Source: Gemmatimonadota bacterium
GTDB taxonomy: Bacteria; Gemmatimonadota; Gemmatimonadetes; Gemmatimonadales; GWC2-71-9
Length of the DNA: 64,000 bases
Direction of reading: 5' to 3'
Assembly: GCA_036679645.1 (NCBI GenBank)
Contig: JAZDCY010000016.1
Span: 37,377-101,376, forward strand
Shown here piece after piece: positions 1,967-37,352 of the stretch. Every line of letters starts with the position of its first letter. The first letter of the stretch is position 1. The notes beneath the pieces were generated by a model, which made no database searches, was not told the DNA's origin, and worked only from the letters and a program-made list of their open reading frames with translations. The translations under genes were made by a program, and so were the position numbers.

Positions 1967-2148
1967 TGACTACTGCTAACTCTTTGTAGTTGAATGGCTT
2001 CAAAAGCCGGTCGCGCGAACCGGCTCCGGGTGAGCAAGGTTGGGCTACTATCGGCGCGAGTGCAAACGGTCAAGCAGTTGTCAAAGAGCGCGTTAGCCGT
2101 GGTCGCGAACCCCAGGCGAAAGATGCACCAGCTAGAGGTTCGCGGCTA
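1967..2148 (-). promoter_or_regulatory. CRISPR leader
   Basis: Lies between cas2 and the first repeat, relatively AT-rich next to the repeat, with several CGCGAACC/GGTTCGCG motifs like those of I-C leaders. Confidence 0.7.
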
Positions 2149-2439
2149 TCAAATAATCAGCGGTCCCTCCAGATCGACGCTCGGCTTCGCGCCGTGATGC
2201 TCCACCCGATGACGCCAATTCCTTCCCAGGAAGTAGAACCGCAGGCTGTCTTCCTCAGGTCGATAGAGATCGAGCAGACGCAGTTTGAACTGCGCCCACT
2301 GTGTCGGGTCGAGCTGGCACTCGAATACCGAGTTCTGCACCCGTTGGCCAAAGCCGACGCAGGTCTTCGCGACGTGCCTGAGGCGTTTGCGGCCCTCCCG
2401 GGTTGTCGTCGCTACGTCGTACGTCACCAAGACAAACAC
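2149..2439 (-). CDS. cas2: CRISPR-associated endoribonuclease Cas2
   Basis: [30 protein letters not shown]; I-C-like sequence. Confidence 0.97.
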
Positions 2440-2454
2440 AATGGCGTCCTCCGG

Positions 2455-3486
2455 TTACTTCCACACGAACGCCGGATAGGCATCGAGATCGCCGCGGAGT
2501 AGCCGCGCCAGGAGCCGCGCCTGCAGGTGGATCAACAACCCTACCGTGGTTTGCTCGCCCAGGAAGGGGTGTGTGATCTCATCCTGCTTGCGCTTCTGAT
2601 ACGCGATCAGAACCGTCTTTCGCGTGTCCTCGGACATCTCGACTCCACCGGATTCCGTCTTGCGGAAGCCCTTCGCGTGGACCTGCTGGCGGTTGATGAG
2701 CGTGAGGGCGAGCCGATCCGCCAGGAACGGTCGGAACTCCTCGATGAGATCGAGCGCGAGTCCGGGTCGGCCTGGACGGTCGCGGTGGAGGAAACCGACC
2801 TGGCTGTCCAGCCCGGCCGCCTCACAGGCGGCTCGCGCATCGTGCCCGAGCATGGCGTACAGGAACGAGAGCAGCGCGTTGACCGGATCCAGCGGCGGCC
2901 GGCGGTTGCGCCCGGTAAACGCAAAGCCGTCGGGCTGCCCAGTGATCAGGTGGCCGAACACGGCGAAATAGATGCTGGCGCTCTCCCCCTCGATCCCGCG
3001 AATCAGGTCGAGCCGGTCCGCCGCCTGGACCTGTTGGATGGTGTGGGCCAGACGCGCCGCCGCCGCCTGCACAGCCGCCCGACCTTGGCCCTCTGGATAG
3101 TCTCGAACGCTCCGGAGCAGCACGGTCCGTGCGTTCGCGACCTTCGCAGTAACGAGATTCCGCGCAATGACGGCGCTCCGAGACTCGTCGTCGGCGCGGC
3201 GGTACTGCTCGCGACGCAGCAGGACGTTGCCGGGTGTGAAACCGAGCACGCGGGCAAGGAACTTCCCCTGCTCGCTCAGGAACGAGATGGCGATACCCCG
3301 TTCGGCGCACGCGTGCATTAGCCACGGGCTGATGTTGACGAGACCGAAACACACGATCCCGCCGAGCGTGTGGAGCGGCAGCTGAAGGCGGGTCTCCTCC
3401 CCGAGTTTTACCTGGAGTGCCTCCCCGTACTTCGAGACGTACGCGCCTTGCGTCGTCACGAACAGGGTATTCAGGTGCTGCTTCAC
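2455..3486 (-). CDS. cas1: CRISPR-associated endonuclease Cas1 (I-C type)
   Basis: LNTLFVTTQGAY, IRGIEGESA, RNRRPPLDPVNALLSF, GFLHRDRPGRPGLALDLIEEFR. Confidence 0.98.
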   Translation of the reverse strand: MKQHLNTLFVTTQGAYVSKYGEALQVKLGEETRLQLPLHTLGGIVCFGLVNISPWLMHACAERGIAISFLSEQGKFLARVLGFTPGNVLLRREQYRRADDESRSAVIARNLVTAKVANARTVLLRSVRDYPEGQGRAAVQAAAARLAHTIQQVQAADRLDLIRGIEGESASIYFAVFGHLITGQPDGFAFTGRNRRPPLDPVNALLSFLYAMLGHDARAACEAAGLDSQVGFLHRDRPGRPGLALDLIEEFRPFLADRLALTLINRQQVHAKGFRKTESGGVEMSEDTRKTVLIAYQKRKQDEITHPFLGEQTTVGLLIHLQARLLARLLRGDLDAYPAFVWK

Positions 3487-31323: not shown

Positions 31324-32282
31324 GCCGCCGACAATGCCGCGTGAACCTCTGCGGGACTGATGTCAATCATGCATCGGTGGTGTCCCAATGGGCAGTGGGT
31401 GCCTCCGAACCGCGAACAGGGGCGGCAGGATAGGGACCGCTGGAGCACAACCGCTTTCGACCGGTACGGAAAGAAGCCAAACGCCTCTACCGTGGGCCCA
31501 AAGAGGGCGATGACCGGTGTCCTGACGGCGGTAGCGAGGTGCATCAGGCCCGAATCGTTGGCCACCACCGCCTGCGCGTTCCGCAGCAAGGCGCCTGTCA
31601 CGCCCAGGTCGGTGGCGAAAGCGTCGATGACGGGTGCTCCGGCAAGACAGGTGCGCTCGTGCGCGAGCCCAACACCGACAACGCGCCGCCCGGAACTCTC
31701 GAGGCGGGTGGCAAGCTGCCGCCAGTGATGGGCCGGCCAGCGTTTGGTGGCGTGCGCCGCGCCCGGCGCGAGGACCACGTAGTCTCCCTGTACGATGTCT
31801 CTCGCGCGCGACTGGTCACCAGGTGTGGTGAAGAACTCCGGGGGCGCACCATCGGGGATCGCGCTGATGGATCGGGCGGCCTCGAAGTATCGCTCGGCCA
31901 TGGGCCCGGGCCCGCGCGCGCGGCGTTTCCACGTGATGAGAAGTCTGCGGCGCACTCGCCACTTGCGATAGGTGCCCCACCGTCCGCCGAGCAACAAGCG
32001 TAATGCTCGGCTACGCAGGCTACCGTGCAGGTCGAGCCGGTGATGCCATCGTGTGATGGCCAAGCGCGCGGCCAGCGAGCGGACGGTCATGCCCGGTTCC
32101 AGCGTGACCACGTGCCGTACGTAGGGGCTGTGCGTCACCAGCGCGCGGTACGCCTCTTTGGTCACGTACGTGATCTCGGTAGACGGGTTCGCGGTCGCGA
32201 TCGCACGGAGCAGCGGTGTAGTCAGGATCACGTCGCCCAACGAGCCAAAACGAACCACGAGGACGGTGGTTGCCAAAGGCAT
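31320..32282 (-). CDS. Glycosyltransferase family 9 (LPS heptosyltransferase-like)
   Basis: VLVVRFGSLGDVILTTP, DLHGSLRS, APGAAHATKRWP, ANDSGLMHLA, LFGPT. Confidence 0.92.
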   Translation of the reverse strand: MPLATTVLVVRFGSLGDVILTTPLLRAIATANPSTEITYVTKEAYRALVTHSPYVRHVVTLEPGMTVRSLAARLAITRWHHRLDLHGSLRSRALRLLLGGRWGTYRKWRVRRRLLITWKRRARGPGPMAERYFEAARSISAIPDGAPPEFFTTPGDQSRARDIVQGDYVVLAPGAAHATKRWPAHHWRQLATRLESSGRRVVGVGLAHERTCLAGAPVIDAFATDLGVTGALLRNAQAVVANDSGLMHLATAVRTPVIALFGPTVEAFGFFPYRSKAVVLQRSLSCRPCSRFGGTHCPLGHHRCMIDISPAEVHAALSAA

Positions 32283-32360
32283 GCTAGCAGAATGTACGAT
32301 TCGCCGGCGAGTCCGGCCACCGCGTTGCCGCCTGTCCGTAGCGCCGGTAGCTTTCGCCAC

Positions 32361-33932
32361 ATGACGCGACCGAAAACGATTCTCTGGGTCGACGACGAGA
32401 TCGAGTCGCTCGAGGCGCATACCCGGTTTCTCCAGGAGCAGGGATACGAAGTCGAACGTGCGGCGCACGGGGACGATGCGTTGGCCCTGCTCCGGCGACA
32501 GCCATACGGGATCGTGTTGCTCGACGAGCAGATGCCGGGAAAACGTGGTCTGGAGCTCGTAGCTGAAATCCGCTCGATCGATCCGGCCGTTCCGCTCGTC
32601 ATGGTGACGAAGAGCGAAGAGGCCGACACGATGCGCGAGGCGATCGGCATCGAGATGGACGACTATCTCGTCAAACCGGTGAACCCCCGGCAGGTGCTGA
32701 GCGTCGTCACGCGGCTGATCGAGGGCGACAGGATTCGCGAACAACGCCTCGCACGCGACTTCGTCACGCGGTTTCGCGAGCTGGAAGAGCAGCGCGGCCC
32801 TCAGATGGGATGGCGTGAGTGGATCGACCTCGTCGGAGAACTCTCGCAGTGGGACGTTCGGCTCGGTCAGGGTGATCAGGGCGGGCTTAAAGATGCGTTG
32901 CGGACATTGCAGCAGAGCCTGCACCAGGACTTCGCACGCTTCATCGAGGCTCGCTACCCCGAGTGGTTGGCCAACCCCGATGGCGACCGACCGCCGCTGT
33001 CGGTGGATGTAGTGAGTGAGTTCCTCTCACCCCTGATCCGGCAGCACGAGACCGTCTTGTTCATCGTCATCGACTGCCTCCGGCTCGATCAATGGGAGGT
33101 GCTGAAAGCGCTGGCCACCGAACGGTTCGATGTCGAGGCGTCCTACTATTTCAGTATCCTGCCAACGGCGACCCCGTATTCACGCAACTCCATCTTCAGC
33201 GGGCTGTTCCCCATCGAGATTGCGGGACGGCATCCGGAGTGGTGGGGGGAGCGCGACGATGAGAGCCTCAATGCGCACGAGTCGGAATTGCTCGAGGAGC
33301 AACTGAAGGAGCTACACGGGAAGAAGGTTCCCATGCGGTATGTAAAGCTCTCGAGTACAGCGGACGGTGAGCAACTTGCCCGACAGCTCCCCGGTTACCT
33401 GGCGCAGCCCGGTGTCACCGCGCTCGTCTTCAATTTCATCGACCAACTCACCCATGGGCGAGCGGAGAACGCCATTCTCTACGAGGTGGCGCGCGACGCT
33501 GCGGCGCTCCGCAGCCTGACCAAGACGTGGTTTCAGGACTCAGCATTGATGCGCGCGTTGCGCGAGGCCGCACGCCGCGGTGTTCCCGTGCTGGTGACGA
33601 CGGACCATGGGTCGATTCACTGTCACACACCCGCCACCGTGTTCGCCAAGCGGGATGCAACCCAGAGCCTGCGCTACAAGTTCGGCGAGGACTTGCGCGC
33701 CGAAGATCCGGACAGCGCGATTAGTGTGAAAGACATGGCCGCTTGGGGGTTGCCACGCCGTCCGCAGCTCGGTCTGCGGCTGGTGTTGGCGACGGGAGAC
33801 CGCTTTTTCGTGTATCCTACCAAGCTTCGGGAGTACCAGGCACGGTATCGCGGAGCGTTTCTGCATGGCGGTGTGACCCCGGAAGAGATGATCCTGCCGG
33901 TCGCGCTACTCACGCCGCGCGGACCCAGTTGA
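32361..33932 (+). CDS. Response regulator with PglZ domain (PorX-like)
   Basis: ILWVDDE, LLDEQMPG, MVTK receiver; IVIDCLR, LPTATPYSRN, VTTDHG, FLHGGVTPEE PglZ motifs. Confidence 0.92.
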   Translation: MTRPKTILWVDDEIESLEAHTRFLQEQGYEVERAAHGDDALALLRRQPYGIVLLDEQMPGKRGLELVAEIRSIDPAVPLVMVTKSEEADTMREAIGIEMDDYLVKPVNPRQVLSVVTRLIEGDRIREQRLARDFVTRFRELEEQRGPQMGWREWIDLVGELSQWDVRLGQGDQGGLKDALRTLQQSLHQDFARFIEARYPEWLANPDGDRPPLSVDVVSEFLSPLIRQHETVLFIVIDCLRLDQWEVLKALATERFDVEASYYFSILPTATPYSRNSIFSGLFPIEIAGRHPEWWGERDDESLNAHESELLEEQLKELHGKKVPMRYVKLSSTADGEQLARQLPGYLAQPGVTALVFNFIDQLTHGRAENAILYEVARDAAALRSLTKTWFQDSALMRALREAARRGVPVLVTTDHGSIHCHTPATVFAKRDATQSLRYKFGEDLRAEDPDSAISVKDMAAWGLPRRPQLGLRLVLATGDRFFVYPTKLREYQARYRGAFLHGGVTPEEMILPVALLTPRGPS

Positions 33933-35774
33933 GTGCGGCGCTTCGGGCGCCTCCTGACGTATCTGCGGCCCTATCGCCGGGCGCTCACGGTGAGCGCCGG
34001 CGCAGCGGTCGTCGCGTCGGCGCTGGACGGATTCTCGTTCACGCTCCTCATCCCGTTTCTGCGGCTGCTCTTCGGAGAGGGGACCGCGCTGGCGGCAACA
34101 CCGACCGCGGTCGAGCGGGTTCAGGATGCCCTCGCCGGACCGCTGTTGGACGGTGCCTCCCGCGGGACCGCGCTGGCGGTCGTCATGGTCCTGATTGTGG
34201 GCGCGCTGCTGCTCAAGAATGCGGCCGTGTATGTGGCGCGGTACCTCGCGGTCGCCACGCAAGAGCGCGTGGCGCGCGATCTCCGAGTTGCGCTCTTCGA
34301 TCACCTCCTGCGACTGGGTCTTCCGTACTTCCAGCGAGCGAAGGGTGGCCAACTCATGGCCCGTGCGCTCAGCGATGCCGATCAGACGCGCCAGGCGGTT
34401 GGTGCGGCGCTGATCGCCCTTCTGCGGAATGGTGCGGCGGTCGTTATCTACATCGCCCTGCTGGTGGCACTGTCCTGGCGCTTGACGCTCGTCACACTCG
34501 TGCTCGCCCCGGCACTCGCGCTGTGCCTCCGCCCGGTGCTCAGCGGTGTGAGACGGTTGGTGGTGCGCGCGACGGAGGCGCGGGGGGGCATGGCGGCGAT
34601 TCTCCACGAGACGGTTCGCGGTATACGCATAGTGAAGGCCCACGGTGCCGAGGCGGACGAGCGCCGTCGGTTTCGCGAGGCGGCGGATGGCCAGGTTACG
34701 GCCGTGCTTCGCGCGCAGCGACTCGCCGTCCTCGCCAGCCCGTTGAGCGAAGCCCTCGGTGCGCTCGTCATCGGTGCGCTCCTTCTCGTGGGTGTTCAGG
34801 CGGCGGGCTTGGGTGCGCTGCGTGCCGAGGTGTTCGTGACATTCGTAGCACTCTCGTTGCGCCTGCTCTCGCCGGTGAAGGCGTTGAGCCAGTTCCCGGC
34901 GCTCGCGGCAGAAGCAGTGGCCGGGGCAGACAGAATCTTCGAGGTGCTCGACGTGCCGCCCGACGATAGCGATGATCCCGGCGCCCGCACCTTCAATGGG
35001 ACGCACGATGAGATCGCTTTTCGCGACGTCTGGGTGGGTTACGAACCCGGACGCTGGGCGATCCAGGCGGTCGACCTCCGGGTGCGGCGCGGAGAGATCG
35101 TGGCGATCGTGGGGCCCTCGGGTGCCGGCAAATCGACGCTCGTCGATCTCCTCGCCCGGTTCGTAGATCCCCAACGCGGTGCGGTTACCATCGACAACGT
35201 CCCGCTCACGGACTACAGCCGAACGTCGCTCAGGCGATCGCTTGGGTTCGTGAGTCAGGAGACGATCCTCTTCAACGATACGGTGCGCGCGAACATCGCC
35301 TACGGCAGTGACGCCGGTGCCGGGCTCGACCGGGTTCAGGACGCGGCACGCGCCGCCAATGCGCACGATTTCATATGTGCGCTACCCGACGGATACGATA
35401 CGCTGGTCGGCGAGCGGGGTACGCGGCTATCGGGCGGCGAACGCCAGCGTCTCGCCATCGCACGTGCGCTGCTGCACGACCCGCCCATTCTCATTCTTGA
35501 CGAAGCCACATCAGCGCTCGACACCGCGTCGGAACAGTCGGTCCGCTCGGCGATCGAATGCCTCATGCGCGACCGGACCGTGTTCGTGATCGCGCACCGA
35601 CTGTCGACCCTGCGGCATGCCGACCGGATCGTCGTGCTAAACGAGGGGCGGGTCGTCGAGTCGGGATCCCACGACGACCTGCTTCAGCGTGGCGGGTGGT
35701 ACGAGACGTCGTGGGGTCAGGACCCGGTCAGGCGGTTTCCTCGGCAGGACCATCCTGCACCCGCACGGCGCTGA
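33933..35774 (+). CDS. ABC transporter, fused permease/ATPase (MsbA-like)
   Basis: TM domain, GPSGAGKST, LSGGERQR, ILILDEATSALD. Confidence 0.93.
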   Translation: MRRFGRLLTYLRPYRRALTVSAGAAVVASALDGFSFTLLIPFLRLLFGEGTALAATPTAVERVQDALAGPLLDGASRGTALAVVMVLIVGALLLKNAAVYVARYLAVATQERVARDLRVALFDHLLRLGLPYFQRAKGGQLMARALSDADQTRQAVGAALIALLRNGAAVVIYIALLVALSWRLTLVTLVLAPALALCLRPVLSGVRRLVVRATEARGGMAAILHETVRGIRIVKAHGAEADERRRFREAADGQVTAVLRAQRLAVLASPLSEALGALVIGALLLVGVQAAGLGALRAEVFVTFVALSLRLLSPVKALSQFPALAAEAVAGADRIFEVLDVPPDDSDDPGARTFNGTHDEIAFRDVWVGYEPGRWAIQAVDLRVRRGEIVAIVGPSGAGKSTLVDLLARFVDPQRGAVTIDNVPLTDYSRTSLRRSLGFVSQETILFNDTVRANIAYGSDAGAGLDRVQDAARAANAHDFICALPDGYDTLVGERGTRLSGGERQRLAIARALLHDPPILILDEATSALDTASEQSVRSAIECLMRDRTVFVIAHRLSTLRHADRIVVLNEGRVVESGSHDDLLQRGGWYETSWGQDPVRRFPRQDHPAPARR

Positions 35775-36807
35775 TCGCACGGGTCGGGCACTGCGCGACA
35801 CACACCCCGTCGATCGCCGACCAGCGAGGTTCAGGGTCCGTCACTACCGCCTTCCCCTCGTCGTCCAGCTCGAACAGGCCCGGCGGGCCGATGGAGACGC
35901 AGGCTCTGCACCCGACGCAACGATCCCGATCGATCGTGACACGGTACCGGTGCCGTGGATAGATGCCGACCGAGCCGGGCACCGGAATACCGCCCTCTTC
36001 GTCGAACGGTTCGTTCGCGGCCGCGTATCCGGCGCGCAGCAGGTCAGCGTTGTGGTCGAACGAGAGCAGATGGACGTCCCACACTTTGGGCCGCACGAGT
36101 ACCAGCGGAGGGTGCGACCAGGAGCGCAGCGCCGTCTCGTCCATTCGCTGGACGGCGATCTCGATCGCGCGCGCATACACCGCTGCGAACCCGGATTTCT
36201 GGACCATTGCCCCGTCGTGGTACCGCGCGCCGATGTCGACGGCGAACACCATGTCGCGATCCGCTCGCGCACAGGGATGGACTGGGAGATTGGCGGCGGC
36301 GGCGCCATCGATGAAATAGCTATCCCCAATCCGGTGCGGCGCGATGACGCCGGGAAGGGCACAGGATGCGAGAACCGCTTCGGCCACCGGCAGATTGCGC
36401 AGACCGGGTTGGCCCCAAAACACCTGCGTGCCGGTGTTGATGTCTACGGTGTTGACGAGCAGCGGACGCTCGAGCTCCTCGAATGTCAGGTCGCCCAGGA
36501 GCCCCTTGATGAAATGGGCCAACGGCTCGGTGCGATAGAGCGCGGGGGCCCGCATGCGCCGCAGGGCCATGTCACCGTGCGCGACCTGGAAGAGGTCCCG
36601 TCGTCGGAGCCCGAGCGCGAGTTCCTTGATGCCGGCGACGGACATGCCGGCGCACCACGATGCCGCAATGAGCGCTCCGACGCTCGAGCCGACCACGTCC
36701 TGCGGCAGGAAGCCACGCTCCTCGAGCGCCTCGAGCACGCCGATATGCGCGAGCCCGCGCATGCCGCCGCCGCCGAGCACTAGAGTGTAGTTACGCACGT
36801 CGTTCAT
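35728..36807 (-). CDS. Patatin-like phospholipase fused to a C-terminal ferredoxin domain
   Basis: GGGGMRG, GSSVG, IDG patatin motifs; C-terminal IDRDRCVGCRAC...CVAQCPTRAI. Confidence 0.88.
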   Translation of the reverse strand: MNDVRNYTLVLGGGGMRGLAHIGVLEALEERGFLPQDVVGSSVGALIAASWCAGMSVAGIKELALGLRRRDLFQVAHGDMALRRMRAPALYRTEPLAHFIKGLLGDLTFEELERPLLVNTVDINTGTQVFWGQPGLRNLPVAEAVLASCALPGVIAPHRIGDSYFIDGAAAANLPVHPCARADRDMVFAVDIGARYHDGAMVQKSGFAAVYARAIEIAVQRMDETALRSWSHPPLVLVRPKVWDVHLLSFDHNADLLRAGYAAANEPFDEEGGIPVPGSVGIYPRHRYRVTIDRDRCVGCRACVSIGPPGLFELDDEGKAVVTDPEPRWSAIDGVCVAQCPTRAISAVRVQDGPAEETA

Positions 36808-36896
36808 CGAACCGTACGGCTCCGTACGTGACGGTGCGCAGCCCCGCCGCACGCGTTATACCTTTGTACGAGCATGTCGACTACGGAGAAAGGGCC

Positions 36897-37352
36897 GTGA
36901 GCACGTGCGCGTTCTGCGCTGTCGTGCAGGGCCATGCACCGGGGAGCATCGTCTACGAGGACGACGCCTTGCTCGCGTTCCTGGATCTGTATCCGGTGAA
37001 TCGGGGCCACACGCTGGTGGTACCGAAAGCACACATAGCGGACCTGTCCGACTGCCCCACAGACCTCGCGGCCCGGCTCTTCGGCCTCAGCGTGCGGTTG
37101 GCCCCTGCCGTGGTCGCGGCTACTGGTGCGGAGGGATTCAATGTATGGACCGCCAATGGACGCGTGGCGGGCCAGACCGTATTTCATCTGCACCTGCACA
37201 TTCTCCCACGCTTTGCGGACGACACTTTTGGACTCCGGTTTCCCGAGGACTACCCGCGCAAGGTCGCCCGCGCCGACCTCAACGCATTGGCGCAGCAAAT
37301 CAAGCTGACCGTGGAAACAGGATCGAGTGGGTCTTCTTGCCACGGCGGATGA
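36897..37352 (+). CDS. HIT family hydrolase
   Basis: CAFC, GHTLVVPKAH, GQTVFHLHLHILPR. Confidence 0.93.
   Translation: MSTCAFCAVVQGHAPGSIVYEDDALLAFLDLYPVNRGHTLVVPKAHIADLSDCPTDLAARLFGLSVRLAPAVVAATGAEGFNVWTANGRVAGQTVFHLHLHILPRFADDTFGLRFPEDYPRKVARADLNALAQQIKLTVETGSSGSSCHGG

Follow-up and report, generated by a model that had tools for sequence, protein, structure and literature searches.

The window analysed here is a stretch of 64,000 nucleotides (nt) from the Gemmatimonadota bacterium assembly GCA_036679645.1 (contig JAZDCY010000016.1, positions 37,377 to 101,376 of the forward strand). On its minus strand lies a gene whose product, a protein of 359 amino acids (aa), joins a patatin-like phospholipase domain to a C-terminal ferredoxin domain. 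The initial annotation had placed both domains in one protein, and this is borne out by the Pfam scores given below, which lie above the cut-offs for both within one uninterrupted open reading frame (ORF). According to the ORF listing and the translation, this frame spans 35728-36852 and yields 359 aa when counted from the ATG at 36807. An alternative GTG, 45 nt upstream, is also in the open frame, but the ATG is preferred as the start because the N-termini of the homologues fall within a few residues of it. Every motif of the protein was re-translated at its coordinates, and the features are collected in Table 1.

The Pfam Patatin model (PF01734) matched residues 9-178 with an E-value of 8.6e-36 and 124.4 bits, against a gathering cut-off of 27.7. 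An intact catalytic set had been claimed for this part, and GGGGMRG, GSSVG and DGA were all found on re-translation, so that the three patatin motifs, namely the oxyanion loop GGGxR/KG, the elbow GxSxG and the Asp in DGA/DGG, are present. Ser42 and Asp167-Gly168-Ala169 were invariant in an alignment of 44 Gemmatimonadota homologues of 49-91% identity. The stretch that follows the Pfam model, residues 179-270, completes the bacterial patatin fold as its C-terminal half and is not an unknown linker; the profile match to PlpD covers residues 97-271, and W230, P233, P240, F250 and G260 are conserved in the 44-homologue alignment. In all likelihood the protein is an active acyl hydrolase of the patatin family, a prediction in which the word lipase stands for a family-level assignment made from sequence. 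Within the catalytic part, the loop formed by residues 71-90 (36538-36597) was modelled with a predicted local distance difference test score (pLDDT) of 64-67, yet D71, A76, H77, M80, A81 and R84 are invariant in the Gemmatimonadota set; these residues are not conserved in the two-cluster relatives described below, and the loop may act as a lid that moves or as a surface for interactions. The same genome also encodes a second patatin paralogue without a ferredoxin domain (G000:C28:38069-38866, locus L002, a 332-aa frame), which shows 29% identity over residues 8-264.

For the C-terminal part, residues 290-346 matched the Pfam models Fer4_15 (PF13459; 30.8 bits, cut-off 22.4) and Fer4_13 (PF13370; 25.9 bits, cut-off 24.5). 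Cys297, Cys300, Cys303 and the pair Cys340-Pro341 were invariant in the 44 Gemmatimonadota sequences, Ser42 and the four Cys remained so in a 16-sequence alignment reaching down to 28% identity, and the CxxCxxC plus CP pattern was found in all 121 close relatives. As the initial annotation had it, a Gly replaces the fourth Cys of the first motif (CVGCRACVSIGP). The CxxxCP motif described in the same place stood in part: its final Cys, C340, is conserved, but the position of C336 holds a Cys in 46 of the 121 close relatives and, as judged from the alignments, C336 is a leftover of a lost second-cluster motif rather than a ligand of the retained cluster. It is very probable that the module binds an iron-sulphur (Fe-S) cluster, and the cluster predicted is most likely one [4Fe-4S] held by Cys297, Cys300, Cys303 and Cys340. 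The connector between the two parts is short, and its P284 is invariant among distant relatives as well as in the Gemmatimonadota set.

Table 1. Features of the patatin-ferredoxin gene and of its neighbours (positions are those of the window).
Feature	Residues	Position	Strand	Basis or remark
Complete patatin-ferredoxin gene	1-359	35728..36807	-	359 aa plus stop at 35728-35730; start backed by homologue alignment
Patatin domain (Pfam extent)	9-178	36274..36783	-	Pfam E-value and re-translated motifs
Oxyanion loop GGGGMRG	12-18	36754-36774	-	Re-translation
Nucleophile elbow GSSVG (Ser42)	40-44	36676-36690	-	Re-translation
Catalytic Asp in DGA (Asp167)	167-169	36301-36309	-	Re-translation
C-terminal helical half of the bacterial patatin fold	179-270	35998..36273	-	Beyond the Pfam model; matches PlpD
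Short Pro/Gly-rich connector	271-289	35941..35997	-	P275, G281 and P284 invariant in the Gemmatimonadota set
Single-cluster ferredoxin domain	290-348	35764..35940	-	Pfam, alignments, profile and fold
Ligand motif CVGCRAC (C297, C300, C303)	297-303	35899-35919	-	Re-translation
Fourth ligand, Cys340-Pro341	340-341	35785-35790	-	Re-translation
Remnant second-cluster motif S330-x2-D333-x2-C336 (putative)	330-336	35800..35820	-	C-x2-D-x2-C in two-cluster relatives
Response-regulator receiver fused to PglZ (alkaline-phosphatase-like) domain		32025-33932	+	Directly upstream of the ABC exporter
MsbA-like ABC exporter ORF		33933-35774	+	Convergent; 3' overlap with the patatin-ferredoxin gene at 35728-35774, 47 nt
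HIT-family gene		36828-37352	+	Divergent; about 20 nt from the patatin-ferredoxin start, as ORFs called

The predicted structure is in keeping with these assignments. AlphaFold2, run on the 44-sequence alignment, returned a mean pLDDT of 88.6 and a predicted template modelling score (pTM) of 0.88, with the ferredoxin part above 90, and the model points to one rigid and confident body made of the two domains. In Foldseek searches the best match of the catalytic part was the PlpD passenger domain (5fya; E-value 7.7e-20, TM-score on the target 0.85), followed by CapV, CapE and potato patatin, all four with a probability of 1.00. The ferredoxin part matched the Thermotoga maritima ferredoxin 1vjw with a TM-score on the target of 0.85, a root mean square deviation of 1.6 A and 40% identity, other matches being 1siz, 8amp and 1fxd. 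Sequence-profile searches of the PDB likewise recovered PlpD (8.8e-35) and the T. maritima ferredoxin 1rof (8e-9), and in a pairwise alignment with the latter, which runs end to end, CVGCRAC and QCPTRAIS fall on CIGCGVC and SCPTGAIS. The likeness to single-cluster ferredoxins that had been noted from the letters alone thus holds for sequence, profile and fold, each of which matches solved monocluster ferredoxins. A cytoplasmic location is predicted for the protein, since neither an N-terminal signal peptide nor a hydrophobic or membrane span was found in its 359 aa.

The fusion is genuine and conserved across one Gemmatimonadota order. A word-indexed protein search listed 120 full-length relatives of 340-407 aa and 51-91% identity; most of them carry Patatin and Fer4-type Pfam domains, and they come from Gemmatimonadota wherever the source names them. 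Their public annotation reads only "patatin-like phospholipase" or "NTE family protein", and RssA for some relatives. We then have the result of a six-frame search over 201 Gemmatimonadota genomes, 138 of them from the window's order (families f1, f2 and f3) and 63 from other orders. An uninterrupted full-length match without a stop was present in 110 of the 138, and one more genome of this order had a full-length match with an in-frame TGA. Partial matches were seen in three genomes, and no match in the 63 genomes of other orders reached the ferredoxin part. Four unpublished genomes are counted here, G057, G157 and G182 with fused and G097 with non-fused copies, and the outcome is unchanged without them. 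One genome of the window's family, G125 (locus L120, G125:C2, about 2066-3089), carries the gene in two frames, with the break between residues about 195 and 203 and the CxxCxxC...CP pattern intact; this copy is a frameshifted pseudogene or an assembly error.

Relatives with two predicted clusters were met further away. An exhaustive search of representative sequences gave full-length relatives at 30-35% identity with Patatin and Fer4-type domains, many of them of the dicluster kind, and a profile search seeded with distant relatives found 3669 proteins at E <= 1e-20 among the candidates scored. The best 120 of these 3669 all carry Patatin and Fer4-type domains and are labelled by their source as Planctomycetota, Spirochaetota or Chlamydiales; one cluster of the distant relatives is named Candidatus Sumerlaeia. 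A scan of the genome collection yielded 80 loci, nearly all labelled Planctomycetota and one Candidatus Paceibacteria, among them that of the cultured Engelhardtia mirabilis Pla133 (L106); the occurrence in Planctomycetota is patchy, with the fusion in about nine of 201 sampled genomes. These two-cluster relatives keep the fourth Cys of the first motif and add a second motif, mostly in the form CxxCxxCxxxC...CxxDxxCxxxCP; the second motif reads C-x2-D-x2-C-x3-CP in 113 of 117 sequences and CxxCxxC in three. A CxxDxxC motif marks sites that can convert between [3Fe-4S] and [4Fe-4S], examples being the ferredoxin of Pyrococcus furiosus and ferredoxin III of Desulfovibrio africanus. The 121 Gemmatimonadota-type sequences, by contrast, all lack the fourth Cys of the first motif, and their second motif has become S-x2-D-x2-(C or other)-x3-CP; three other proteins (P0157, P0171 and P0180) likewise have a Cys neither at that fourth position nor at the remaining Cys positions of the second cluster. 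Since the Gemmatimonadota proteins have only the cluster common to all members of the fusion family, and not the second, their module looks like a reduced form of a two-cluster ferredoxin domain, the direction of change being our reading of an unrooted comparison. A quick tree of the catalytic part put most Gemmatimonadota copies, that of the window included, in one well-supported branch; its deep nodes were weak, and proteins without a ferredoxin domain, some of them possibly truncated metagenome genes, were interspersed among the fused ones.

In the window the patatin-ferredoxin gene is monocistronic and is flanked by the genes listed in Table 1, with those for a tyrosyl-tRNA synthetase (TyrRS) and PBP1A further out. 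A scan for a promoter and a terminator around the gene found none, and there was no terminator-like hairpin at the convergent overlap. The gene order, including the pair formed by the PglZ fusion and the ABC exporter, is conserved inside the window's family but not beyond it; it gives the impression of synteny passed on by descent and not of a cluster joined by function. Elsewhere the neighbours, which were called by tblastn of named neighbour proteins and by picking of ORFs filtered on GC content at third codon positions (GC3), were of another kind. In a second Gemmatimonadota family, which belongs to the window's order (L027-L033), a gene for aconitase A, of about 940 aa, lies downstream on the same strand in seven of eight loci, at a distance of 0.02-3.8 kb; in three loci the gap is of 160 nt or less, so that two Fe-S proteins, aconitase and the patatin-ferredoxin protein, may be co-transcribed there. 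In Planctomycetota (loci L035-L114 and L121-L127) the neighbours are genes of beta-oxidation: where 5.5 kb or more of flank was available, which was so at 56 loci, a thiolase gene was found divergently upstream in 50 and a FadB-type gene (enoyl-CoA hydratase/3-hydroxyacyl-CoA dehydrogenase, ECH plus 3HCDH) in 47, the pair sitting about 0.2-4 kb upstream and often directly adjacent. MoxR/DUF58/DUF4350 genes lie downstream in about 30-37 of the 80 loci, and a gene resembling aldehyde:ferredoxin oxidoreductase (AOR) occurs within 7 kb in 12 of them. A metagenome scan with the Spirochaetota-type set returned seven fused loci, all of the Planctomycetota type, and hence no independent lineage for context; metagenome loci of this type with enough flank have the same thiolase/FadB arrangement. 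Both associations hint at lipid and acetyl-CoA catabolism, and they are hints only, because each is confined to one clade.

The mechanism that we propose would start from a cytoplasmic patatin acyl hydrolase of the PlpD/RssA-like bacterial branch, with its dyad and oxyanion loop intact, whose C-terminus the conserved short connector would tie to a ferredoxin module carrying one predicted [4Fe-4S] cluster. This cluster would serve the enzyme as its own sensor: whether it is present, and how far it is oxidised, would report on oxygen or oxidants, on the iron supply or on the reduction level of the cell, and would determine how active or how stable the lipase is. The hydrolysis of ester lipids, feeding fatty acids to beta-oxidation and the tricarboxylic acid (TCA) cycle, would then track redox or iron status. 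Patatin enzymes switched by a partner or a ligand include CapV (by cyclic GMP-AMP), ExoU (by ubiquitin) and VipD (by Rab5), and we favour a sensor because the hydrolase needs no electrons and patatins are typically latent until such a switch turns them on. Even so, a sensor or regulatory role of the cluster falls, in our estimate, a little short of an even chance, and a catabolic role of the enzyme is plausible with somewhat greater reserve. The more specific proposal, that the state of the cluster (intact, oxidised or lost) switches the hydrolase on or off, which would make it the first Fe-S-gated lipase, is a tentative one that we would sooner doubt than affirm, and the same holds for its corollary that the Asp-containing second site of the two-cluster relatives is a more labile sensing element with which the Gemmatimonadota have dispensed. 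Gating of the lipase by redox or oxygen, which the initial annotation had put forward, is thus a plausible inference, and a structural cluster or one for docking to a partner would agree with these data too.

Three observations weigh against the sensor mechanism. All the ligands of the retained cluster are Cys, a pattern typical of ferredoxins that serve as stable electron carriers and not of labile sensors. The neighbours differ between lineages; in the window's own family they are all genes of housekeeping or of unrelated function (response regulator-PglZ, ABC exporter, HIT, TyrRS and PBP1A), and what links the gene with beta-oxidation and aconitase may therefore be a gene order handed down inside single clades. 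Lastly, some near-complete genomes of family f1 gave weak patatin matches only (E-values 1e-21 to 1e-36), none of those listed reaching the ferredoxin part; they belong to genus g11 and a few others (G037, G038, G065, G095, G107, G154, G162, G193, G039, G043, G044, G112, G134, G142 and G153), and since whole genera within the family are thus without the gene, it appears dispensable there.

The first of these observations also fits a cluster that is purely structural, the ferredoxin being a rigid C-terminal cap for fold stability or oligomerisation that takes no part in signalling. The Fe-S clusters of several non-redox enzymes were long viewed as structural, the conserved connector and the high pTM would suit a fixed assembly, and the second cluster could be lost without loss of the family. 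A costly, oxygen-sensitive cofactor would nevertheless be odd for mere stabilisation in lineages that are presumably largely aerobic, and there are related patatins without a ferredoxin domain (276-316 aa as listed, their completeness unchecked), so that the core fold may not need a cap; we regard this explanation as unlikely, although of the rivals to the sensor it is the likeliest. We give slightly less credence to the view that the ferredoxin is an electron-transfer or docking domain linking the lipase to a redox partner in lipid catabolism. The partner could be the acyl-CoA dehydrogenase/electron-transfer flavoprotein (ETF) route, AOR or a desaturase, and hydrolysis would be physically coupled to oxidation of the acyl chain, a version to which the same low credence applies. 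The domain is indeed nearest to true electron-carrier ferredoxins, the two-cluster form of the distant relatives resembles a short electron wire, and the same PDB search brought up a similar ferredoxin domain fused to the cytochrome P450 CYP51 (6mcw), to which it presumably donates electrons. Beta-oxidation genes adjoin the Planctomycetota copies, and the AOR-like genes mentioned above would suit such a partnership. Against it, the patatin reaction uses no electrons, no redox enzyme was found as a conserved neighbour across lineages or near the window gene, and the reduction to one cluster in Gemmatimonadota speaks against a relay.

Two further explanations have far less in their favour than a cluster that senses, supports or transfers electrons. 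An anti-phage or abortive-infection phospholipase effector, of the CapV type known from the cyclic oligonucleotide-based antiphage signalling system (CBASS), is suggested by a weak PADLOC match to a phospholipase effector (67.6 bits), by a score of 59.3 bits with the NCBIfam model CBASS_lipase and by the presence of CapV and CapE among the structural matches. We rejected it as highly improbable: 59.3 bits are far below the cut-off of 200, neither a cyclase nor any other defence gene is adjacent, and vertical inheritance across the order within a conserved housekeeping neighbourhood is unlike the patchiness of defence islands. Chance read-through, or an assembly artefact joining two genes, would have been betrayed by split homologues, the check that the initial annotation had named. 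Nothing was found in its favour, G125 being the one genome with the gene in two frames; the same single ORF of about 350-365 aa recurs in more than 100 genomes (uninterrupted and full-length in about 111) and in hundreds of metagenome proteins, and no split form turned up where non-fused relatives were inspected, four of them, from other Gemmatimonadota orders, having no ferredoxin-like ORF within about 2.4 kb on either side. The conserved full-length ORF and its invariant residues refute this explanation, whose probability we consider negligible.

If the fusion is a redox- or iron-responsive enzyme, it may tie lipid breakdown to the redox or iron state of the cell. Patatin lipases are dangerous enzymes that cells keep latent, and as far as we know they are switched by partner proteins or by nucleotide ligands. 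Control of lipid hydrolysis by an Fe-S module within the enzyme itself would be a regulatory principle of a new kind, and it would give the ferredoxin fold a task that is new as well. It would also provide a direct post-translational link from exposure to oxygen or oxidants, or from the iron supply, to a breakdown of membrane or storage lipids that feeds beta-oxidation. The family is large, with hundreds of sequences, and near-universal in one Gemmatimonadota order, and the Planctomycetota clade, which has a cultured member, brings it within reach of experiment. Even if the cluster were structural only, the comparison of two-cluster and one-cluster forms indicates which cluster is kept family-wide and is, for that reason, probably the needed one. 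What the present analysis adds is this comparison, the Asp-containing second site, the distribution at the level of the order, and the clade-specific beta-oxidation and aconitase neighbourhoods.

The initial annotation knew of no characterised Fe-S fusion of a patatin, and our full-text search of the literature likewise brought up no paper that deals with a patatin carrying a ferredoxin or other Fe-S domain. By its sequence and predicted fold the protein is classed both in the patatin family and in the monocluster ferredoxin family. The best solved relative of its catalytic part is PlpD of Pseudomonas aeruginosa (5fqu/5fya), with which it has the Ser-Asp dyad architecture in common. PlpD is a secreted type Vd autotransporter with a signal peptide and, C-terminal to the patatin domain, a POTRA domain and a 16-strand beta-barrel, whereas in the 359-aa protein a signal peptide is lacking and the C-terminus is a ferredoxin domain; an autotransporter of the PlpD type was ruled out on account of this C-terminus and of the missing N-terminal hydrophobic segment. 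RssA/YchK (NF007623) was the best NCBIfam match, with 76.6 bits over residues 8-207. This is far under the cut-off of 272, and the protein was not taken for an RssA equivalog; RssA, moreover, lacks the Fe-S domain. With the CBASS phospholipases CapV and CapE it has the patatin fold in common, and they exemplify a latent lipase switched by a ligand, but their C-terminal region is different; identity with CapV (NF041079) was rejected on the CBASS_lipase score already given and because no CD-NTase cyclase neighbours the window gene.

Among the papers searched, the closest parallel in function is plant DGAT3. This diacylglycerol acyltransferase is soluble and is described (PMC9692848, citing Ayme et al. 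2018) as bearing at its C-terminus a thioredoxin-like [2Fe-2S] ferredoxin domain in which four Cys are conserved; like the window protein, it is a lipid acyl enzyme of the non-redox kind with a C-terminal Fe-S domain. The role of that domain is treated as unsettled and is discussed in relation to iron status (PMC9692848). DGAT3 has an unrelated catalytic fold, a [2Fe-2S] cluster and a eukaryotic origin, and the likeness is one of analogy only. On the side of the ferredoxins, the monocluster proteins of T. maritima (1rof/1vjw), P. furiosus (2z8q/1siz) and Desulfovibrio gigas (FdII, 1fxd) align end to end with the module and have the same CxxCxxC...CP pattern; they are free electron carriers of about 60 aa, whereas the module of the window protein forms the C-terminal end of a hydrolase. 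Closest in overall plan are the two-cluster proteins of Planctomycetota, Sumerlaeia, Spirochaetota and Chlamydiales, which have the domain order, the length, the catalytic residues and the Cys of the first cluster in common with the window protein, and which differ from it by their second cluster site and, in the Planctomycetota clade, by their thiolase/FadB neighbours.

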